A DNA stretch of 64,000 bases from a virus. This document shows positions 22,713-62,926 of this stretch, in pieces. Location: IMG/VR virus record IMGVR_UViG_3300027963_000041, positions 79,096 to 143,095 of that record. One strand, given 5' to 3'. The notes under the pieces were generated by a model. That model ran no database searches. It was not told the origin of the DNA and saw only the letters and a list, made by a program, of their open reading frames with translations. The stretch's first letter is position 1, and every line of letters starts with the position of its first letter. The translations under genes and the position numbers were made by a program.

Positions 22713-22931
22713 ATGAAATATTGGACTATTATTTTTCCCGGAGAATTAGGTCAGCATGTACAAGAAACATGGTCAGAAGATCAAATTCTCAAATCATATT
22801 TTCCTCATTGGTGTAAGATGATGGTAGAAGCAGGCAAAGGAGATTTTGTCAACGAACAAGATTGCCTAAATGATTGGACTGTAGTGCATTGGGCAGAAGA
22901 AACAACTCAATTTGGAGAGAAGTTGAAATGA
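22713..22931 (+). CDS. Hypothetical protein
   Basis: 72-aa ORF tightly packed in the operon. Confidence 0.55.
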   Translation: MKYWTIIFPGELGQHVQETWSEDQILKSYFPHWCKMMVEAGKGDFVNEQDCLNDWTVVHWAEETTQFGEKLK

Positions 22932-24040
22932 AAGATTGGCAACATGGATTTGACATAGACTATCTCAAGGGTCTAGAAAAAAAGTACGAAGAGTACAATC
23001 GCTATACACTCTCGCCTTTTGCAAAGTATAAGAAAAATAACATTGCAGAGTCTTTGTTTAAAGGTACGCTAACAATTCTTGATGATGCAATGCTTGAAGT
23101 ATTTGAATCAAAGTCTGCATCTAACATTACCATGCACGGTGATACTGTTATCGCAAAGAAACAAAAAGGCGACATGACAGTAAGCAAGTTATCAGGAAAT
23201 TTGAGTACACTTAAAAAATGTCTTGAGCCTATAACAAATGTTTTTGGACTACCTTTAAAAGATGTTTGGCTCATTGTGTGGGCTGAGAATAAAGATCATT
23301 GCAAGTTAGCAGAAGAATCTGGTTTCTGTTACGTTGGTCCAAAGATTACAACATACGGCGAAGTGTATGCCATCTACTATCGTGGTAAGCAGAGAGATTT
23401 TCCTAAAGTTGATCGCGCTGAATATTTGTCAATCAAAAAAGTTGAGAATATCGATGCTAAATTGATTGAAGCAATTTACAATAAACTTACTGAGTTGCCT
23501 AGTTTTACGAATCACTATAGCAACTACAACAAAGGTAAGTCATGGGGTGCATTATCATTGCGTGGCTATACATTAGACCCATCGTTCATTACAAAACCAA
23601 TTGAAATGAATGATACTTGGATAGAAGAAAACAAAGGCCAAGTATTTTGCCTACAAGATACACCTTTGTTTGATTTGTTTCCTGAAGTGCGTGAATTGAT
23701 TCGCCCGTATGGTGAGACTGTTCACCGAGTGCGATTCATGAGATTGAAACCTAATGGGGGTGAACTTTCAAGACACACCGATCAAGTTGATCCAGATTCT
23801 GGTGGGTCATTAGGTAAGTTAGCAAGGTTGCATTTCCCAATCAAAACAAATTCAGATATGTTATATACTGTATGGAACACAAAAGGTGAACCAGAAAACA
23901 TACATATGAAAACGGGCGAGTGTTGGTTTCTTGATACACGCAAGCCTCACATGGCTGTCAATGGTGGAGATGAAGAACGTATCCATCTTGTCGTAGATAT
24001 TATTACCGAGAAAAAATTACATGATAAACTTGTCAACTGA
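22928..24040 (+). CDS. Fusion of a GNAT-like N-terminal domain and an Asp/Asn beta-hydroxylase-type 2OG-Fe(II) domain
   Basis: C-terminal RHTD...RLHFPI...DTRKPHMAVNGG..RIHLVVD; N-terminal VWLIVWAEN...AEESGFCYVG resembles GNAT motif B (weaker). Confidence 0.7.
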   Translation: MKDWQHGFDIDYLKGLEKKYEEYNRYTLSPFAKYKKNNIAESLFKGTLTILDDAMLEVFESKSASNITMHGDTVIAKKQKGDMTVSKLSGNLSTLKKCLEPITNVFGLPLKDVWLIVWAENKDHCKLAEESGFCYVGPKITTYGEVYAIYYRGKQRDFPKVDRAEYLSIKKVENIDAKLIEAIYNKLTELPSFTNHYSNYNKGKSWGALSLRGYTLDPSFITKPIEMNDTWIEENKGQVFCLQDTPLFDLFPEVRELIRPYGETVHRVRFMRLKPNGGELSRHTDQVDPDSGGSLGKLARLHFPIKTNSDMLYTVWNTKGEPENIHMKTGECWFLDTRKPHMAVNGGDEERIHLVVDIITEKKLHDKLVN

Positions 24041-24782
24041 TGAATTACTTGATACAATAAAGGGATGGGAAGACCCAAACCCACCGCCTATCATTGAAGA
24101 ATACAATGGCTTTCATGTTGTGCGCGATGATAAGTTAGGCTATGGTAGCAAAGCAAGATTCATTGATTATCTTATTGCAACTGAAGGTGACGAATGGGTT
24201 TTCGGTGGTGCAAACAAAGTGGGATGGGGACCAATTTCTCTAACACACGTTTGTAATAAATATGGAAAGAAAGCAACCTTCTTCATGGCTAAGCGCAAAG
24301 AGCCAACATGGCATCAACAGCAAGTCTTAGACATGGGCGGCACAATTCATTGGGTAGCAAATGGCATGTTAAATGTAACGAAAGCGAAAGCAAGAAACTA
24401 CTACGAAGAAGATACAAAGAGTCGTAGAGTCTTGCCACTTGGTCTTGAACATCCAACTGTGCTTGCATCAATCGTCAAAGTAGCACGAAACTTAAAAATC
24501 AAACCGACTGAAATTTGGACTGTAGCATCAAGCGGCACTCTCAACCGCGGGTTACAATTAGCATTTCCTACTGTTCCTGCTTATGCAGTAGAAGTAGGAC
24601 ACAAGATGAGTGATTATGAAAAAGGTCGTGCTATCACAATGCGTTCATCATATGCTTACGATCAGAAAGTAGAACCTGATCGAATGCCCCCATATCCTTC
24701 AGAACCATACTATGACGCGAAGTTATGGGATTTTGTAATTGCTAATGGAAAGAAAGGAGCATTAATCTGGAATGTAGCCTAG
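24021..24782 (+). CDS. PLP-dependent fold-type II enzyme (ACC deaminase/D-Cys desulfhydrase-like)
   Basis: VVRDD..GYGSKAR Schiff-base Lys region, VASSGTL phosphate loop, YDAKLW. Confidence 0.75.
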   Translation: MINLSTDELLDTIKGWEDPNPPPIIEEYNGFHVVRDDKLGYGSKARFIDYLIATEGDEWVFGGANKVGWGPISLTHVCNKYGKKATFFMAKRKEPTWHQQQVLDMGGTIHWVANGMLNVTKAKARNYYEEDTKSRRVLPLGLEHPTVLASIVKVARNLKIKPTEIWTVASSGTLNRGLQLAFPTVPAYAVEVGHKMSDYEKGRAITMRSSYAYDQKVEPDRMPPYPSEPYYDAKLWDFVIANGKKGALIWNVA

Positions 24783-24803
24783 TTTTCAATTAAGGAGAAA
24801 TTA

Positions 24804-25049
24804 ATGAGTAACGACAAAGACAAAGAGAAACATGGCAAGCGTATCATGAGAGATGAAAACGCTATTCGTAAACAGGTTAAAATTGCAAAAGTGTTTGGGT
24901 TACCAGTAACCGAAGCGCATCGATTTGCAAAACATCACGCCACAAATTGTGGTATCCCAGGTTGTGTGATGTGTGCAAATCCAAGAAAAACATTTAAAGA
25001 AAAAACAATTCAAGAAAAGAAATTTGAACAGAGAGAATTATATGACTAA
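24804..25049 (+). CDS. Small basic Cys-rich protein
   Basis: AAGGAG RBS; HHATNCGIPGCVMC. Confidence 0.65.
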   Translation: MSNDKDKEKHGKRIMRDENAIRKQVKIAKVFGLPVTEAHRFAKHHATNCGIPGCVMCANPRKTFKEKTIQEKKFEQRELYD

Positions 25050-25413
25050 ACTTAATGGATTGGTGCCAAAAGGTTGGGGTTCAGAGTTTATTTTTGCCAC
25101 CAACGATAAGTATTGTGGTAAATTTTTAAACTTTGAAACAGGCGCTAAATTTTCAATGCATTTCCATGCAGTCAAAGATGAAACATGGTATGTACAAAGT
25201 GGCAAATTTATTGTTCAGTACATTGATACTACTAACGCAGAAGTAAAAGACAAATATCTTGAGGTTGGTGATACATGGCATAACCCGCCATTGTTGCCTC
25301 ATCGCTTGATTTGTGTTGAAGAAGGTAGTATAATTGAAGTAAGTACACCTGATTCGGTGGAAGATAACTATAGGGTGATGGCAGGTGATAGTCAAAAAGA
25401 GAATATTCGTTAA
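25042..25413 (+). CDS. Cupin-fold protein (sugar isomerase-like)
   Basis: KGWGSE, SMHFH..KDETW, PH, EVST motifs. Confidence 0.8.
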   Translation: MTKLNGLVPKGWGSEFIFATNDKYCGKFLNFETGAKFSMHFHAVKDETWYVQSGKFIVQYIDTTNAEVKDKYLEVGDTWHNPPLLPHRLICVEEGSIIEVSTPDSVEDNYRVMAGDSQKENIR

Positions 25414-25792
25414 TGGTTCATTTGATGTTCTGCATCTTGGTCATCTACGGCTTCTAAATTTTGCAAGAAGCCTAGGTGATCATCTTTGCGTTGCAATAGA
25501 TACAGACAGACGAATTAAAGAACTGAAGGGCGAGAGTCGCCCTATAAATAATTTGTACGAACGAAAAACATTCTTAGCAAACTTAAAGTGTGTTGATGAA
25601 GTTTTAGTTTTTGATAGTGATATGGATTTAATTCACATCATGGAAGCATACAAGCCAGACATTATTGTTAAGGGTAGTGATCACAGAGAGACAAGTCAAC
25701 TCTCTAAAAAATATTGTAAAGAGGTTATATTTTATGAACGATTTGGTGAATACTCTTCAACAAGAAAAATACAAGATATTGCTAGTCGGTGA
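25385..25792 (+). CDS. Sugar-phosphate nucleotidyltransferase (HldE/RfaE domain II-like)
   Basis: NGSFDVLHLGH, KGESRPIN, KGSD, YSST. Confidence 0.85.
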   Translation: MIVKKRIFVNGSFDVLHLGHLRLLNFARSLGDHLCVAIDTDRRIKELKGESRPINNLYERKTFLANLKCVDEVLVFDSDMDLIHIMEAYKPDIIVKGSDHRETSQLSKKYCKEVIFYERFGEYSSTRKIQDIASR

Positions 25793-26504
25793 TGCTTGCA
25801 TTGATCGATACATCTACGGCACAGTAGAAAGAATCTCGCCTGAGGCGCCCGTTCCTGTTCTAAAGATGAATGGGAAAGAAGAGTTTCGGCCAGGTATGGC
25901 AAGCAATGTGTACGAGAATCTAAAAGCATTGTATTGTGACGTACAACAATTAAGTGGCATACCCTCTAAGAAAACAAGATTCGTTGATGTGAAGAGTGGC
26001 TATCAATTGCTACGGGTCGATGAAGATCATAAGAATGCACCAATCAGTTTTGCTACACTCATACCCAACTATGATGCGGTTGTAATTTCAGACTACAACA
26101 AAGGTAGCGTTACATATGAAACTGTGCGAGAAATTCAATCGATGTTTAGAGGACCAATCTTTATTGATACAAAGAAGCCAAGCATGATTGAGTTTGATGG
26201 TTGCTATGTAAAGATCAATGAATTAGAATGTAGTCTAGCGCAGACATTACCTAGTTCTAATTACTTGATTGTTACGAAAGGTGCAGAAGGCACTCAGTAC
26301 AATGGTAAGACATACCCAACAAAAAAAGTAGAAGTGCATGATGTAACTGGCGCAGGTGATGTTCATCTAGCCGCTCTTGCCGTGTTCTATTTGTTGACTG
26401 GTTCAATTGAAAATGCATTGCCTTACGCAAACAAACTAGCATCTATCTCTGTACAGCATCAAGGTTGTTATACAATCACAAACGAAGACTTGGTTACACT
26501 ATGA
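25734..26504 (+). CDS. PfkB-family sugar kinase (HldE/RfaE domain I-like)
   Basis: RISPEAPVPV, SDYNKG, DVTGAGD. Confidence 0.87.
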   Translation: MNDLVNTLQQEKYKILLVGDACIDRYIYGTVERISPEAPVPVLKMNGKEEFRPGMASNVYENLKALYCDVQQLSGIPSKKTRFVDVKSGYQLLRVDEDHKNAPISFATLIPNYDAVVISDYNKGSVTYETVREIQSMFRGPIFIDTKKPSMIEFDGCYVKINELECSLAQTLPSSNYLIVTKGAEGTQYNGKTYPTKKVEVHDVTGAGDVHLAALAVFYLLTGSIENALPYANKLASISVQHQGCYTITNEDLVTL

Positions 26505-26935
26505 TTAAAGAAAAGTACCTTGATACTTACATGAAGACTGCGAAATTATTCGCAGAGCATAGTAGTGCAGTTAGAAAAAAAGTTGGTGCTGTTGTTGTTA
26601 AGAATGACAGAATCATCTCTATCGGTTACAATGGTATGCCAAGTGGATGGGATAATGATTGTGAAAATTATTTTGGATTAGATTTAAGCGGTAATCCAAC
26701 ATTAGTAACAAAACCCGAAGTTCTACATGCAGAGTCTAATGCGATTGCCAAACTAGCAAAGTCTACTGAGAGTGGCGATGGTGCGAGTATGTTTATCACT
26801 TGCAGTCCATGCATAGATTGTGCTAAAATGATATATCAATCTGGCATTAAAGAAGTTTTTTATGGCGAAGAATATCGTAACAATGACGGCATTGATTTCC
26901 TAAATAAATGTGGGCTATCAGTAAGAAAATTATGA
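26501..26935 (+). CDS. cd: dCMP deaminase
   Basis: GYNG, HAESNAI, SPCIDC. Confidence 0.92.
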   Translation: MIKEKYLDTYMKTAKLFAEHSSAVRKKVGAVVVKNDRIISIGYNGMPSGWDNDCENYFGLDLSGNPTLVTKPEVLHAESNAIAKLAKSTESGDGASMFITCSPCIDCAKMIYQSGIKEVFYGEEYRNNDGIDFLNKCGLSVRKL

Positions 26936-27114
26936 AATACAAGTACGAAAAATTTGAAGACTATTTTGATGAGGTAGAAAATTATGCCACTAGAGGCGAA
27001 AGATTTTATGATGAGTTTTCCGATCCAATGAAAGTGGATCGTGCCATTCAATGGCTTGAAGCCGCGTTCAAGTGTGGGCGTGAAATGCAAAGTGAGAAAG
27101 AAATTAATGACTAA
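26932..27114 (+). CDS. Hypothetical protein
   Basis: ATGA-coupled small ORF. Confidence 0.5.
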   Translation: MKYKYEKFEDYFDEVENYATRGERFYDEFSDPMKVDRAIQWLEAAFKCGREMQSEKEIND

Positions 27115-28660
27115 ACATTTTTATGAACGAAACGATTGGTTGCTGAATCATGAGACAAACAAGTCGTTCGAAGAAATACAAAGGATGACTGATGATGAAT
27201 TCAGACAATGGTTTATTGACCTCCGTAAAGCGGTTGTCTATGCATGGGATACTCTTAATCAGCCTCCGCGGGTTGGTTGGGATGAGAACGAGATTCGAAA
27301 ACAGTTTAGGGAAATGTACGGATTTCCTGTTCACGGATTTGAACAAACAGACGAACTTACCGGAGAAAAAGACGTAATTCGAAACACTAGCGTAGTTGGC
27401 AATGCCGCGAATCAATGGTTTCCTACCATGATGAAGACACGCATTAACTATACTAAGAACGATGATGGTTTGTCTATCTACGATCACTTTGTTCGCGATG
27501 ATCTACTTGAGAAGACTTTAAAGTATGCGCGAAGACATTACAAGCGCGATTCATTCTATCACTACTCAAACACTATCAGAGTAGGCGAAGTAGTTGAGAT
27601 TGGTAGTCACCAAAAGAAATTTAAAACTGGTGATGAATTTGTTCAGTATTTTGAACAAACTAACTTGCGCGAGTATGGCTATGATTATTGGATAGAATCG
27701 CGTGATGATGAAGAAGAGTACACCGGTTATAATGAAGACTTGAAGAACGCCAAGTATCTAGAGATTGCAGACTTGTCTTTGTGTGCAGAGCATACTACAA
27801 AAAACATTCAATCGAAACAATCAAAGTATCGCATTCGTATGTACAAGATGGGTCAGAAGATTTTTCCTCTTGGCTTCAAAGCATTCCGAGTATCGTGGTG
27901 TCAATACGCAGTTAACTTTCCTCCACTCACAGCAAAGTACCTTTATGAAAAATTTACTAAACACATTAAAGACCAAGACAGAATTGTGGTTTACGATCCC
28001 TCTAGTGGTTGGGGTGGCCGTATTCTCGGCGCTATGTCTACTCGCCTTAGCACCCCTTTGCATTATGTTGGTACTGATCCTAATACTGACCATAGCATTG
28101 CCGGTGATTCTACTAAGTATGCCGATTTGGCTAATTTTTATAATGCCTCCAAAAACTCAGGAGTATTGTTCCAAAGCGCCAATACTTTCGACATATATCA
28201 ATTGGGTTCAGAAGTTATCGGATCCGATGAGCGATTTTATGCCTACAAAGATAAGTTAGATATGGTCTTTACTTCACCGCCATACTTTGCAAAAGAGGCG
28301 TATAGTGAAGACCCAACACAATCGTACAAAAAATTTACTGGTTATGATTCTTGGCGCGAAGGTTTTCTACGCCCAACATTGAAGACTGCTGTTGAGTGGT
28401 TACGCAATGATCGTTATCTGTTATGGAATATTGCAGATGCAAAGTTTGGCGCTGACATGCTACCACTTGAAAAAGATAGCCGAGACATTCTTGAAGAGTT
28501 AGGTATGGAGTACAGAGGCGTTTTGAAAATGTCACTTGCACAAATGCCAGGCGGCAATCGCATTGATTCTGATACTGGACTACCCAAAGCAAAAAACTTC
28601 TGCAAGGTCAACGGCATGTGGCTCAAGTATGAGCCGATTTTTGTGTTTTATAAGCCGTAA
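27107..28660 (+). CDS. Large SAM-dependent amino-methyltransferase-fold DNA modification enzyme
   Basis: Motif I YDPSSGWGGR, motif IV FTSPPY; ~290-aa N-terminal extension. Confidence 0.8.
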   Translation: MTKHFYERNDWLLNHETNKSFEEIQRMTDDEFRQWFIDLRKAVVYAWDTLNQPPRVGWDENEIRKQFREMYGFPVHGFEQTDELTGEKDVIRNTSVVGNAANQWFPTMMKTRINYTKNDDGLSIYDHFVRDDLLEKTLKYARRHYKRDSFYHYSNTIRVGEVVEIGSHQKKFKTGDEFVQYFEQTNLREYGYDYWIESRDDEEEYTGYNEDLKNAKYLEIADLSLCAEHTTKNIQSKQSKYRIRMYKMGQKIFPLGFKAFRVSWCQYAVNFPPLTAKYLYEKFTKHIKDQDRIVVYDPSSGWGGRILGAMSTRLSTPLHYVGTDPNTDHSIAGDSTKYADLANFYNASKNSGVLFQSANTFDIYQLGSEVIGSDERFYAYKDKLDMVFTSPPYFAKEAYSEDPTQSYKKFTGYDSWREGFLRPTLKTAVEWLRNDRYLLWNIADAKFGADMLPLEKDSRDILEELGMEYRGVLKMSLAQMPGGNRIDSDTGLPKAKNFCKVNGMWLKYEPIFVFYKP

Positions 28661-33156: not shown

Positions 33157-33183
33157 AAGTGGTCACAATTTGTGACCACTTTT
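33157..33183 (+). terminator. Perfect 12-bp inverted repeat (terminator or operator)
   Basis: AAGTGGTCACAA-T-TTGTGACCACTT. Confidence 0.6.
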
Positions 33184-33189
33184 CGCATA

Positions 33190-33197
33190 TATAAATA
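33190..33197 (+). promoter_or_regulatory. Late promoter
   Basis: TATAAATA before the glycosyltransferase-like gene. Confidence 0.7.
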
Positions 33198-33225
33198 TAC
33201 TACAATTCTTTTTTATGGAGAAATT

Positions 33226-34065
33226 ATGCAACTTGAGATGAATATTGAACAATTGCGCGGTAAGAAAATCTTCCTCGCCACACCAATGTATGGTGGAGTT
33301 TGTCATGGTGCTTATACCAAAGCACTTGCAGACTTGATGATTCTAGCAACCAAACATGCCATTGATGTTAAACTGTATTTCATGTTTAACGAATCCCTAA
33401 TCACCCGCGCACGAAACTATCTAGCAGATGAATTCCTGCGAAGTGGTTATGACTATTTGCTATTCATTGATAGCGATATTCATTTTGAAGCACAAGACGT
33501 TTTAGTGCTTTCGCACTTTGCTATCAACAATGATAATATGGATGTTATCTGTGGTCCATATCCAAAGAAAGCAATTTCTTGGGAGAAGATCAAGCAAGCA
33601 GTTGACCGTGGATTCGCAGACAAGAATCCATTATTGCTTGAAGAATTTGTTGGTGACTATGTTTTCAATCCTGCTGATGGTATCACACAATTCAAAATTG
33701 ATGAACCAGTCGAAGTGAAAGAAGGCGGCACAGGCTTCATGCTTATCAAGCGTACTGCATTCGAAGCATGGGATAAAGCATATCCAGAAAGATCATACAA
33801 GCCTGATCATGTGCGTACAAAATCGTTTGATGGTAGCCGTGAGATTATGGCTTACTTTGATTGCGTTATTGATCCAGAATCAAAGCGTTATCTTTCCGAA
33901 GATTATATGTTCTGCCAACACTCAAGAGCAATTGGTTTGAAAGTTTGGATGCTTCCTTGGATTAAATTGAAACACGCAGGTACTTATATCTTTGGCGGTT
34001 CTCTTGCCGCACTCGCCGCAGTTGGTGCATCACCTACTGCAAGTGATAATGCACCTAAAAAATAA
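33226..34065 (+). CDS. GT-A fold glycosyltransferase-like protein
   Basis: ATPMYGG, SLITRARN, LLFIDSD (DxD), GTGFMLI, SEDY. Confidence 0.7.
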   Translation: MQLEMNIEQLRGKKIFLATPMYGGVCHGAYTKALADLMILATKHAIDVKLYFMFNESLITRARNYLADEFLRSGYDYLLFIDSDIHFEAQDVLVLSHFAINNDNMDVICGPYPKKAISWEKIKQAVDRGFADKNPLLLEEFVGDYVFNPADGITQFKIDEPVEVKEGGTGFMLIKRTAFEAWDKAYPERSYKPDHVRTKSFDGSREIMAYFDCVIDPESKRYLSEDYMFCQHSRAIGLKVWMLPWIKLKHAGTYIFGGSLAALAAVGASPTASDNAPKK

Positions 34066-40097: not shown

Positions 40098-41536
40098 AAT
40101 TCTATACACACTTTACACGATATGGTAACTATATTCTAGAACGCGGCTATGAAAATGGCAAGCGTTACGCTAATAAAGTAGAATATAATCCAACATTGTT
40201 TGTTCCGTCAAAAACGGAAACTGAATTTAGTACATTGGAAGGCTATCATGTGGCGCCCGTTGAAATGGGAACGATGCGTGATGCAAATGACTTTATTAAA
40301 AAGTATGAAGAAGTAGAAAACTTTCCAATCTACGGCTCTACAAACTATCCATATGTGTATATCAATGAGCAGTATCCAGATGAAGTATACTACGACAAAG
40401 ATTTAATTCGTGTTGCAAACATTGATATTGAGGTTGGTTCTGAGAACGGGTTTCCTGAGCCAGACAAAGCGAGTGAACCAATCACCGCAATCACAATAGA
40501 GATTGATGGTACGTTTTTCGTCTTTGGTTGTGGCGACTATGAAACACATCAAGATAATGTATCATATCTCAAATGCAAAGATGAGAATCATTTGATTGAA
40601 CAATTTCTAAACTTATGGGAATTAAAATCACCAGACGTAGTGACTGGTTGGAATATTCAATTCTTTGATATTCCATATATCTACAATCGCATTAATCGCT
40701 TGATGGGTGAGAAGACAGCAAAGCGTTTGTCCCCATACAAATCGATTGGCGAACGCACAACAACAATCCACAACAGACAGCAAACTGCGTTTGATCTTGT
40801 GGGTATTGCAATTCTAGATTATCTAGAACTGTACAAGAAATTTACTTATTCGCAACAAGCATCTTATCGCCTTGATCATATCGCATACATCGAACTTGGT
40901 GATAAAAAATTAGACTATTCTGAGCATGAAACTTTACACCAACTCTATAAAAACAACTATCAAAAATTTATTGAATACAACATCAAAGATGTGGAACTTG
41001 TCGACCGCCTCGATGAAAAAATGAAATTCATTGACATGGTGCTGGCGCTGGCATACGATGCAAAGGTCAATATGACTGATGTATTCACGCAAGTACGCAT
41101 GTGGGACACTCTAACACATAATGCCTTGTGGAAGAAAGGTGTTGTTGTACCTCAAAAGAAATTCTCATCAAAGAATGAGAAGTATGAGGGTGCCTATGTG
41201 AAAGAGCCGGCACCAGGCAAATATGATTGGGTTGTATCGTTTGACTTGAACAGTCTTTATCCACACTTGATTATGCAATACAATATTTCGCCTGAGACTA
41301 TCATCAACGGCAAACACGCCAGCGTAAGTATTGAAGATTTACTGCACAGTAAATATAACAATGATAGCGAATATGTTATGGCTGCCAATGGCCATTATTT
41401 TAGAAAAGATGTGCAAGGCTTTCTGCCTGAGATGATGCAACGCATGTATAATGATCGTGTTCTATATAAAAATAAGATGATTGAATCACAGAAAGAACTT
41501 GAGAAAGTCAATGCACAGTTAAAGGAATTAGCATGA
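40094..41536 (+). CDS. gp43A: DNA polymerase gp43 N-terminal subunit (3'-5' exonuclease plus palm motif A)
   Basis: DIEV ExoI, GWNIQFFD ExoII, YNIKD ExoIII, SFDLNSLYPH. Confidence 0.93.
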   Translation: MKFYTHFTRYGNYILERGYENGKRYANKVEYNPTLFVPSKTETEFSTLEGYHVAPVEMGTMRDANDFIKKYEEVENFPIYGSTNYPYVYINEQYPDEVYYDKDLIRVANIDIEVGSENGFPEPDKASEPITAITIEIDGTFFVFGCGDYETHQDNVSYLKCKDENHLIEQFLNLWELKSPDVVTGWNIQFFDIPYIYNRINRLMGEKTAKRLSPYKSIGERTTTIHNRQQTAFDLVGIAILDYLELYKKFTYSQQASYRLDHIAYIELGDKKLDYSEHETLHQLYKNNYQKFIEYNIKDVELVDRLDEKMKFIDMVLALAYDAKVNMTDVFTQVRMWDTLTHNALWKKGVVVPQKKFSSKNEKYEGAYVKEPAPGKYDWVVSFDLNSLYPHLIMQYNISPETIINGKHASVSIEDLLHSKYNNDSEYVMAANGHYFRKDVQGFLPEMMQRMYNDRVLYKNKMIESQKELEKVNAQLKELA

Positions 41537-42045
41537 TACAAACTTATACAGAAATTTTACCAAAAGATTTTTGCGAACATTTGATGCGTAAATTTGATGA
41601 ACAGGAGACAAAAGATTTGTCTCATGGTATGTTTGAACAAATTGAAATTGATTGGGAAGATGAAGTAAAGGCATTGATCGATACCACAAAACATGTGGCC
41701 GAACACTATAAAACTTTATATGATTCGCATAATATGATGCCACGGCGCAGACGTATTGAAGGGTTTCGTATCAAGCGGTATGAACCTAACAAACATTCTT
41801 TCCCATTACATTCCGATGCGTCAAGTTTAGAATCATGCACAAGGTATCTTTCCTTTTTGTTTTACTTAAACGATAGCGAAGCAGGAACAAGATTCCATGG
41901 ACCTTTAGGCATGGAGCCCTTGACAATTGAAGCAAAACAAGGTAACCTATTAGTGTTTCCTCCTATGTGGATGTATCCACACGAAGGCATTATGCCTACT
42001 GAAAAACCAAAGTATATTATGAGTACCTATTTCCATTATGTCTGA
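41533..42045 (+). CDS. 2OG-Fe(II) oxygenase (prolyl-4-hydroxylase-like)
   Basis: HSD, FLFYLND, GT.F, FPP.WMYPHEG, KYI. Confidence 0.85.
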   Translation: MIQTYTEILPKDFCEHLMRKFDEQETKDLSHGMFEQIEIDWEDEVKALIDTTKHVAEHYKTLYDSHNMMPRRRRIEGFRIKRYEPNKHSFPLHSDASSLESCTRYLSFLFYLNDSEAGTRFHGPLGMEPLTIEAKQGNLLVFPPMWMYPHEGIMPTEKPKYIMSTYFHYV

Positions 42046-44490: not shown

Positions 44491-44991
44491 ATGAAAATTG
44501 GTTTTAATTGTTCGTCATTTGATTTATTCCATGCTGGTCATGTGACAATGCTAAAGATGGAAAAAAAGTTGTGTGACTATTTGATTGTTGCACTACAGGT
44601 CGACCCTACTGTGGATAGACCTAGCACAAAAAACAAGCCTGTACAATCGGTATATGAAAGATATGTTCAATTGCAGGCATGTAAGTATGTGGATGAAATT
44701 CTTGTGTATCATACCGAAGAAGACTTAGCCAATCTGATTATGACACAGACAATGCACATAAGGTTTCTCGGTGAAGAATATAAAAATAAAGACTTTACTG
44801 GTAAACAATATTGCATTGAAAACGGAATTGAGTTATACTATCATGTGAGGAATCATAGTTATAGTACATCGGAACTTCGTCAACGTACATATGAGTTAGA
44901 ATTGCAGAAGAAAAGCGAACCTGCTATCGTTGAATATGAACAGCATTCGCCAAAGTTATTAAACAAATATTATGAAGGAAAAACACAATGA
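44491..44991 (+). CDS. Cytidylyltransferase (TagD-like)
   Basis: [25 protein letters not shown]. Confidence 0.85.
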
Positions 44992-62255: not shown

Positions 62256-62926
62256 AAGTAAGGTTAGTCTCTTATTCACAAATGTCAGAGGAATTGAAGA
62301 ATGATATTCGATACTCAATGGATGCACAGGAACTTGTCGCGTATTGTGCCAGGGTATCAAATCCAGCCAGTCAGTCCAGTAATGAAAACTCAGAACGACT
62401 TATTCGATACCTCGCAAGACACAAGCACTGGTCACCATTCGAAATGGTCTCAGTCTGCCTCGAAGTTGAAACCACAAGAGATATTGCAAGACAATTCCTA
62501 CGACACAGAAGTTTTTCCTTTCAGGAATTTAGCCAACGATACGCTGATCCAACGAAAGATTTGGATTTCGTATGTCGAGAGGCACGCCTTCAGGACACCG
62601 CTAATAGACAAAACAGCGTAGAAGTAGATGATCAACTATTACAAAACGATTGGTATCGCGCACAGCAAAGAGTGATCTATGCGGCTAGAAGAGAATATGA
62701 ATGGGCTATTGCAAATGGTATTGCAAAAGAACAAGCAAGAGCAGTTTTACCTGAGGGTCTAACTGTATCTAGACTCTATGTGAATGGAACACTCAGATCA
62801 TGGTTACATTACATTGAACTGAGAAGCGGAAATGGAACTCAAAAGGAACACATTGAAATTGCAAAGGCTTGCGCTGAAGTGATTGTAAAAATATTCCCAA
62901 TGGTTAAAGAATTTGTACAAGAATAA
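62252..62926 (+). CDS. thyX: Flavin-dependent thymidylate synthase
   Basis: HWSPFE, RHRSFSFQEFSQRY, EQARAVLP. Confidence 0.95.
   Translation: MKVRLVSYSQMSEELKNDIRYSMDAQELVAYCARVSNPASQSSNENSERLIRYLARHKHWSPFEMVSVCLEVETTRDIARQFLRHRSFSFQEFSQRYADPTKDLDFVCREARLQDTANRQNSVEVDDQLLQNDWYRAQQRVIYAARREYEWAIANGIAKEQARAVLPEGLTVSRLYVNGTLRSWLHYIELRSGNGTQKEHIEIAKACAEVIVKIFPMVKEFVQE

Follow-up and report, generated by a model that had tools for sequence, protein, structure and literature searches.

The interval 22928-28660 in a 64-kb stretch of viral DNA from IMG/VR record IMGVR_UViG_3300027963_000041 harbors three core genes that, with a probability of about one half, encode a module for hypermodification of the bases in the phage's own DNA, possibly by means of a 3-amino-3-carboxypropyl (acp) group that is taken from S-adenosylmethionine (SAM) and trimmed to aminopropyl. 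We call the whole stretch the window; coordinates are positions in it unless another locus label is given. The core consists of a methyltransferase-fold enzyme with an SPPY motif, a compact pyridoxal 5'-phosphate (PLP) enzyme and an AspH-type hydroxylase fusion, and it is located inside the replication gene block. The interval as a whole is composite, with a number of passenger genes beside the core in a variable slot of the genome.

The core enzymes, their homologs and their fusions

At the sequence level the PLP protein (24021-24782) was recognized only weakly (Pfam PALP, E-value (E) 0.002), and searches of PDB sequences with the protein and with its family profile gave nothing significant, so that the fold came from the model only. 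The AlphaFold model, which has a predicted local distance difference test score (pLDDT) of 93, aligned to 1j0a, a homolog of 1-aminocyclopropane-1-carboxylate (ACC) deaminase, with a Z-score of 22.7 over 248 residues. The top 33 structural matches are all fold type II enzymes and the next unrelated fold follows at Z 6. In the family alignment K44, S171, G172 and T173 are invariant and S170 is at least 90% conserved (SSGT loop, res. 170-173). As modelled, the protein is a fold-type II PLP enzyme, possessing the predicted fold, the Schiff-base lysine and the phosphate-binding loop.

The PLP protein matches phrog_7093 (E 2.5e-26), the family of which gp52 of phage M6 is the archetype (E 2e-159). 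Alignment of the profile of the window PLP family with M6 gp52 by hhalign ran end to end (probability 97.9, E 3.9e-13) and takes in the C-terminal signature PP(Y/F)P...YD(A/L)K.W...WN(V/I). In the reverse direction, tblastn with M6 gp52 retrieved the window gene at E 2.5e-6 and also gave matches within the fetched loci. Biochemical work showed that M6 gp52 and ViI gp226 remove the carboxyl group from conjugates of thymidine with glycine or serine in DNA (PMC8989533). The template for a model of gp226 in that work was 1j0a, the same structure that is the top match of the window PLP model. Judged by sequence, the PLP protein is homologous to M6 gp52, a decarboxylase that acts on DNA. The family is essentially viral; a search for cellular homologs yielded only four contigs of metagenome-assembled genomes, which carry phage-like DNA.

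The methyltransferase-like protein (27107-28660) has more than 2000 full-length metagenomic homologs of about 520 amino acids, many of them encoded on contigs of 135-170 kb. Comparison of an AlphaFold (AF2) model based on 54 sequences (pLDDT 91.7, predicted template modelling score 0.90) assigned the C-terminal 250 residues to the class I SAM methyltransferase fold. The best solved match of this catalytic domain is aTrm11 (Z 16.4, root mean square deviation 2.8, 180 residues aligned), followed by TrmN (Z 15.9), Trm14 and then (D/N)PPY amino-methyltransferases including METTL5 and PrmC; Foldseek was in agreement with this, and the closest viral models are annotated as N4-cytosine DNA methyltransferases. 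For the N-terminal region of ca. 270 amino acids, which is specific to the family, structure comparison gave no fold assignment. In the sequence, motifs I, II and IV read YDPSSGWGGR, GTDPN and SPPY, respectively; D319, G323 and R327 (motif I), D346 (motif II) and S412 and Y415 (motif IV) are invariant in the family alignment and P413 and P414 are conserved at 90% or more (SPPY 412-415, counted in the numbering of a 539-amino acid open reading frame (ORF)). The class I SAM-binding fold, motif I, the acidic motif II and the SPPY motif IV are thus all present in the modelled protein, and the invariant SPPY together with the canonical SAM motifs would fit attack by an exocyclic amine.

Similar to the amino (N4-C/N6-A) DNA methyltransferases, including ParB-fused phage methylases (PF01555, phrog_498, phrog_12517), the protein has a class I Rossmann fold in which motif I is of the type DPxxGxGxR, motif II is acidic and motif IV is an invariant SPPY. 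The best PHROG of the window protein is phrog_12517, and precomputed PF01555 matches are present on many members of its family. Unlike these methyltransferases, it carries the family-specific N-terminal region, its PF01555 score of 21.7 bits is below the gathering cut-off of 26.7, and members of its family repeatedly occur fused to, or next to, a homolog of a PLP decarboxylase, which would be useless to a plain methylase. Five metagenomic homologs of 725-771 amino acids (P0247, P0254, P0257, P0259 and P0266) possess C-terminal extensions of 190-240 amino acids, which matched no Pfam family and showed no similarity to the PLP domain or to the N-terminal domain of the hydroxylase.

The third core protein, the hydroxylase fusion (22928-24040), matches PF05118 in its C-terminal domain (E 4e-13, 49.9 bits against a cut-off of 22.6), and the iron triad H283-x-D285...H353 (numbering of alignment A3) is invariant in a family that counts 814 metagenomic homologs. 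Among solved structures the closest sequence is that of L-proline cis-4-hydroxylase (4p7w, E 2.5e-8). By sequence similarity this domain is an AspH/LpxO-type 2-oxoglutarate (2OG)/Fe(II) oxygenase. The N-terminal part of ca. 185 amino acids is strongly conserved in the family; with 18 members it gave no Pfam match at E up to 5, its best PDB profile match was a weak one to an N-acetyltransferase (E 0.23 over 34 residues), and its Atlas score of 0.82 is uninformative. A further 2OG-Fe(II) oxygenase of 170 amino acids (PF13640) is encoded at 41533-42045, flanked on each side by one half of a split gp43 DNA polymerase.

Proteins in which a PLP domain is combined with a methyltransferase-like domain were found in three independent architectures. 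In P0280 (829 amino acids) the methyltransferase precedes a PALP domain that aligns over its full length to the window PLP family, and in P0323 (796 amino acids, verified by translation from the contig) the order is reversed, with the PLP part in front of the methyltransferase. The gene for P0323 is flanked by two ParB_N genes and located on an integrase-bearing element. Among cultured phages, tblastn with the window PLP protein matched only three records. In the Erythrobacter phages R6L and ZS04 the PLP match falls within a gene that carries the annotation DNA methyltransferase or modification methylase, and in the Microcystis phage Mae-JY30 a gene for a methylase piece, annotated 'ParB/sulfiredoxin' (PF01555 match confirmed), is followed by a separate PLP gene.

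The third architecture is gp1 of the cultured Erythrobacter phage vB_EliS_R6L (807 amino acids, L180:4816-7236), in which a ParB-like domain is followed by motif I VLDPFAGGSVRG, motif II YTGVDL, the PLP domain, motif IV FSCPPY and the remainder of a methyltransferase-like domain. The PLP domain is complete (residues 399-625, hhalign E 2.6e-41), and gp1 has two matches to phrog_12517, one before and one after this domain. With motif II before it and motif IV after it, the PLP domain interrupts the methyltransferase fold, and R6L gp1 represents a domain insertion. In alpha-class amino-methyltransferases the target-recognition domain occupies this position. The published description of R6L gp1 is that of a CcrM-like methylase and leaves the PLP domain unmentioned; a PAPS-reductase-like gene is located ca. 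1.4 kb from gp1. ParB-type DNA-binding domains are fused to (R6L gp1) or encoded next to (P0323) the fused forms, and recurrent fusion in such DNA-binding contexts argues that both activities serve one substrate. Prediction of a complex between the methyltransferase and the PLP protein gave a score of 0.00, which is no verdict and counts as evidence neither way.

The core shares its PLP enzyme (phrog_7093, gp52/gp226 family) with the pathways by which phages M6, ViI and PaMx11 hypermodify thymidine (PMC8989533). By analogy it would further have in common with them a decarboxylase that works on a DNA-bound adduct resembling an amino acid, perhaps with oxygenase or acyl-transfer steps in addition, and evasion of host nucleases as the likely purpose. 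Unlike in those pathways, a dUMP (deoxyuridine monophosphate) hydroxymethylase, a 5-hydroxymethyldeoxyuridine (hmdU) DNA kinase, an aGPT-Pplase and a radical SAM isomerase were not found. No ThyA homolog (PF00303, the dUMP hydroxymethylase type) was detected in the 143-kb record (completeness about 80%). Single-sequence tblastn searches, of limited sensitivity, with M6 gp51, gp53 and gp54 gave no match, neither in the genome nor in the fetched loci; the enzymes without a match comprise the amino-acid:DNA transferase (gp51), the radical SAM enzyme and the hydroxymethyluracil (hmU) kinase (gp54). The window phage instead encodes ThyX (about 62309-62899), which makes normal dTMP (deoxythymidine monophosphate), and the partner of the PLP enzyme is the SPPY methyltransferase-fold enzyme, which would point to the exocyclic nitrogen of cytosine or adenine and not to C5 of thymine. 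An earlier reading of this DNA from its sequence (the original prediction) had noted a thyX gene with neither an hmU kinase nor an amino acid:DNA transferase, and this agrees with the ThyX gene and the empty searches with the M6 enzymes. Its proposal that a methyltransferase-fold enzyme and a PLP enzyme cooperate on DNA gains support from the homology to gp52, the three fusion architectures and the lack of matches to enzymes of the hmdU route.

Proposed chemistry, co-occurrence and competing explanations

A methyl group alone offers a PLP enzyme nothing, and for this reason we propose that a larger group is derived from SAM; the choice fell on acp because it is the only amino-acid-like group at hand and the enzymes of the known route from amino acid to DNA were not found. 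The methyltransferase-fold enzyme would transfer acp from SAM, and not only methyl, to N4 of cytosine or N6 of adenine, after which the gp52 homolog would decarboxylate the DNA-bound aminocarboxypropyl group to aminopropyl. Alternatively, the PLP enzyme might first decarboxylate SAM and the transferase would then move the aminopropyl group, in a manner resembling spermidine synthase. The hydroxylase fusion, where present, would contribute an optional further tailoring of the side chain, and the product would be DNA that is protected from host nucleases. In phages that possess the methyltransferase only, the outcome may be methylation only, an untrimmed adduct, or a reaction that draws on decarboxylated SAM of the host.

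A parallel exists in the biosynthesis of microcin C, where MccD, a methyltransferase of class I, moves the 3-amino-3-carboxypropyl group from SAM and MccE decarboxylates it to aminopropyl (PMC8323819). The likeness, acp transfer by a methyltransferase-fold enzyme followed by decarboxylation, is one of mechanism only, and the substrate there is a peptidyl-nucleotide phosphate and not DNA. MccE also bears a GNAT domain. The original prediction had suggested transfer of a larger group such as acp, followed by decarboxylation, acylation and hydroxylation, a scheme for which microcin C would be the biochemical precedent. On the strength of such analogy, the specific chemistry (acp or aminopropyl from SAM or decarboxylated SAM on N4-C or N6-A, trimming of the gp52 type and optional AspH-type hydroxylation or acylation) is put forward tentatively, as a candidate that is more doubtful than the module itself.

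Co-occurrence of the genes was analyzed in 80 IMG/VR loci centered on the methyltransferase and 80 centered on the PLP gene, in which the interval genes were located by tblastn; counts are based on 49 non-redundant loci with a complete interval between gp46 and the methyltransferase. Both the PLP gene and the hydroxylase gene were present in 14 of these intervals, a directly adjacent PLP gene without hydroxylase in 10, the hydroxylase without PLP gene in seven, and neither in 18. In 54 of 55 PLP-centered loci a methyltransferase is encoded at most 4 kb downstream, and 70 of 72 have the hydroxylase immediately upstream of the PLP gene. At least one phage fragment, of 56 kb, contains hydroxylase and PLP genes and no methyltransferase. 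Since all four combinations of PLP and hydroxylase adjoin the methyltransferase, the trio is not obligate. The obligate three-gene pathway of the original prediction was not borne out by these combinations, by the 56-kb fragment, or by a complete genome that has the methyltransferase only (see below).

The explanation that comes closest in merit is that the protein is an ordinary orphan methyltransferase that forms N4-methylcytosine (m4C) or N6-methyladenine (m6A) and evades restriction, the other genes being unrelated accessories in the slot between gp46 and the methyltransferase. We consider this a real but minority possibility, and the observations that weigh against a hypermodification module are for the most part those in its favor. 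The methyltransferase occurs without a PLP gene in 25 of the 49 intervals and without either partner in the 18 mentioned above, and a complete 167.8-kb genome with terminal repeats contains a methyltransferase and no PLP homolog anywhere, under conditions in which a positive-control genome was detected. On a tree of 49 methyltransferase proteins, a separate set from which sequence duplicates had been removed and to which the window protein was added, presence changes at least 10 times for the PLP gene and at least seven times for the hydroxylase gene, and no alignment column of this set separates methyltransferases with a PLP neighbor from those without. The gene order of T4-like phages is kept by descent and would by itself account for much of the adjacency, so adjacency alone is weak evidence, and the same variable slot in relatives also holds peptide deformylase, 2OG oxygenase and GIY-YIG genes. 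Furthermore, the catalytic domain with its canonical SAM and SPPY motifs resembles an ordinary amino-methyltransferase, also in its structural neighbors, and its closest viral structural matches are annotated as m4C methylases. Marine myovirus genomes commonly carry m4C motifs, and a survey by single-molecule real-time (SMRT) sequencing, which was not specific to this lineage, reported no non-methyl modification (PMC8919816). An ordinary methylase would, however, leave unexplained why PLP domains are fused to or inserted into methyltransferase-like domains in unrelated phages and mobile elements, and why the only characterized members of the PLP family act on amino acids bound to DNA. Because of the fusions and the gp52 results we place this explanation below the DNA hypermodification module.

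It is improbable, though less so than the sugar-based scheme discussed below, that the module is real and has RNA (tRNA or rRNA), protein or a small compound as its substrate, the last for instance an amino acid or a metabolite derived from SAM; one scheme of this kind would be beta-hydroxylation followed by PLP-dependent elimination. The best solved matches of the catalytic domain, aTrm11, TrmN and Trm14, are RNA N2-methylguanosine (m2G) methyltransferases, and PrmC, which follows with METTL5, is a protein methyltransferase. Fold-type II PLP enzymes normally take free amino acids, and the PF05118 enzymes of known substrate act on proteins, lipid A or free proline. A substrate other than DNA is difficult to reconcile with the ParB-type DNA-binding domains in or beside the fused forms, the position of the module within the replication gene block, the action of characterized phrog_7093 members on DNA, and the annotation of the viral structural neighbors as DNA methylases.

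Gene layout, passenger genes and the sugar cassette

A linear IMG/VR virus record of 143,095 bp, for which CheckV gives a completeness of about 80%, contains the window as its right-hand 64 kb. All genes are oriented on the + strand. Upstream of the interval are genes of the T4 type for a UvsW-like helicase, the gp55 sigma factor, gp47/gp46 and peptide deformylase, and downstream follow CobT/CobS-like proteins, gp45 and gp44; this neighborhood consists of T4-type replication and late genes. For the major capsid protein, identity is ca. 65% with the counterparts in Stenotrophomonas phage DLP_6, Methylophilales phage Melnitz and Pelagibacter phage Mosig. When the interval was compared with phage records by megablast, nothing matched, and no close cultured relative was found. 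The source is an uncultured T4-like water phage. The interval is filled by nine tightly packed ORFs with overlapping stops and starts:

22928-24040, + strand: hydroxylase fusion, 370 amino acids, C-terminal half PF05118
24021-24782, + strand: PLP enzyme, 253 amino acids, fold type II according to the model, phrog_7093
24804-25049, + strand: Cys/His-rich and Lys-rich protein, 81 amino acids, from the translation; phrog_4499 (E 7e-9)
25042-25413, + strand: cupin; Cupin_2 (E 4.5e-7), MannoseP_isomer (E 3.5e-4), phrog_7851 (E 3e-43)
25385-25792, + strand: nucleotidyltransferase resembling HldE domain II; PF01467 (E 7e-17), TIGR02199 (E 5.6e-31), phrog_7878 (E 7e-40)
25734-26504, + strand: PfkB kinase resembling HldE domain I; PF00294 (E 2e-15), TIGR02198 (E 6e-42), phrog_8133 (E 2.5e-87)
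26501-26935, + strand: deoxycytidine monophosphate (dCMP) deaminase of the T4 cd type; PF00383 (E 4e-23), phrog_174 (E 1e-52)
26908-27114, + strand: ORF of 68 amino acids, from the ORF list, no family match
27107-28660, + strand: methyltransferase-fold enzyme, 517 amino acids, with DPSSGWGG and SPPY

The five genes named in the original prediction (hydroxylase fusion, PLP enzyme, small Cys-rich protein, dCMP deaminase and the 517-amino acid protein) are all real, located where it had placed them on the + strand and tightly packed. It had overlooked the cupin, the nucleotidyltransferase, the PfkB kinase and the 68-amino acid ORF, and what it took for one operon is broken by an unrelated nucleotide-sugar cassette. 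The GNAT-like character that it gave to the N-terminal part of the hydroxylase is not established by the weak N-acetyltransferase profile match. A scan of the interval for promoters and terminators gave counts at or below the shuffled expectation.

Several of the additional genes have a restricted or variable distribution. The gene for the 81-amino acid Cys protein is confined to loci carrying both hydroxylase and PLP genes. Its product contains the almost invariant motif H..H..CG.P.C.MC.NPRK.[FW]KE (window protein and 31 distinct homologs), by which it is probably a zinc knuckle and an optional passenger. The element C-x-N-x4-[F/W] in this protein is similar to the first half of the consensus of AspH substrates; from its sequence, the protein might be a substrate of the hydroxylase or a zinc knuckle. 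The dCMP deaminase belongs to ordinary nucleotide metabolism and is a passenger; its position varies and in L023-L027 it is found ca. 7 kb downstream of the methyltransferase. The 68-amino acid ORF was seen in close relatives only.

The cassette of cupin, nucleotidyltransferase and kinase occurs only in the close relatives of the window phage and in one second sublineage, always directly after the PLP gene, and most relatives with the core lack it. The kinase has a GAGD motif and an ATG start, and the sequence matches of the cupin make it a likely sugar-phosphate isomerase or epimerase of the cassette. Similar to the ADP-heptose pathway (GmhA, HldE, GmhB, HldD), kinase and nucleotidyltransferase correspond to split HldE-like domains. 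Unlike in that pathway, neither a GmhA-type isomerase (SIS_2 domain) nor the phosphatase GmhB was found in the record, and the scores are below the equivalog cut-offs (TIGR02198, 143.8 against 345 for the kinase; TIGR02199, 107.3 against 181.5 for the nucleotidyltransferase). Homologs of the kinase are present within sugar clusters of the cyanomyoviruses S-CAM1, S-CAM3, P-SSM2 and S-SSM7; in S-CAM1, S-CAM3 and P-SSM2 the cupin family phrog_7851 likewise accompanies kinase and nucleotidyltransferase, and the sugar clusters with cassette homologs are situated beside tail-fiber genes. An ectoine-like pathway composed of GNAT, PLP, cupin and hydroxylase proteins was ruled out, as its enzymes are of other families and the cupin goes together with the sugar genes.

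The same record contains a glycan/nucleotide-sugar cluster ca. 48 kb away and outside the window (G000:C1:26200-33000, equal to L174:4203-11014). It encodes a class I methyltransferase, a GT34 glycosyltransferase, a DegT/DnrJ sugar aminotransferase, a three-domain thiamine pyrophosphate enzyme of the branched-sugar type, a nucleoside diphosphate (NDP)-sugar epimerase/reductase and a 4,6-dehydratase, and is followed by a cell-wall hydrolase and gp32. Because the cassette is lineage-restricted, has homologs in cyanophage sugar clusters and coexists with this distant cluster, it is probably a supply line of nucleotide sugar serving the glycan cluster, separate from the base module.

Further genes of related type were observed elsewhere. 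A second cytidylyltransferase-like gene is located at 44491-44991 (PF01467, E 8e-13), and the relatives L004 and L008 have a similar gene upstream of gp47. In L010, a T4-like contig of more distant relationship, a fused cytidylyltransferase-cupin is preceded by an ORF that weakly resembles an acyl carrier (PP-binding) (L010:3841-4987); the PLP homolog of this contig follows DNA polymerase, and no methyltransferase is encoded within 8 kb of it. The window region 33172-34065 encodes a 297-amino acid protein (phrog_1574) with weak matches to GT-A-type glycosyltransferases (Glyco_transf_21, Anp1), which is kept in most relatives between CobS and gp45 or a deoxynucleoside monophosphate kinase, cassette-less relatives included.

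A cassette beside a dCMP deaminase and a methyltransferase could also be seen as a source of NDP-sugar for glycosylation of a hydroxylated base, as in the phages RB69 and DLP3, whose DNA contains arabinosyl-5-hydroxycytosine. There the sugar is activated by a comparable logic of isomerase, kinase and nucleotidyltransferase; the RB69-type pathway uses enzyme families unlike those of the window cassette and requires a ThyA homolog (PMC13326640). Even with the possible GT-A-like gene at 33172-34065, such glycosylation is very improbable and was ruled out as the main explanation, since neither a ThyA-type base hydroxylase or hydroxymethylase nor a glycosyltransferase of family GT1 or GT2 was found in the record, most core-keeping relatives are without the cassette, the separate glycan cluster at C1:26-33 kb has its own glycosyltransferase, and the cyanophage homologs adjoin tail-fiber genes.

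Significance for aquatic T4-like phages

Cultured entry points exist in phages R6L, ZS04 and Mae-JY30, so that the question is directly testable. If only m4C or m6A were found, the methyltransferase would be an ordinary anti-restriction methylase and the fused PLP domain would still need explaining.

To our knowledge, all phage DNA hypermodifications worked out so far start from a pre-made hydroxylated pyrimidine or a deazapurine. If the DNA hypermodification module is real, it would be the first route that starts from an exocyclic amine instead of a 5-hydroxymethyl or 5-hydroxy pyrimidine, and would provide a new entry to base chemistry in which a larger SAM-derived group is placed on ordinary cytosine or adenine after replication. 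Such a modification could cause read errors in nanopore and SMRT sequencing of aquatic viromes, and its enzymes might yield new tools for enzymatic DNA labelling. Among the abundant uncultured T4-like phages of aquatic habitats the route would be widespread, and the cultured Erythrobacter phage R6L would have it as a single fused protein; it may render these phages resistant to restriction and to CRISPR (clustered regularly interspaced short palindromic repeats) systems.

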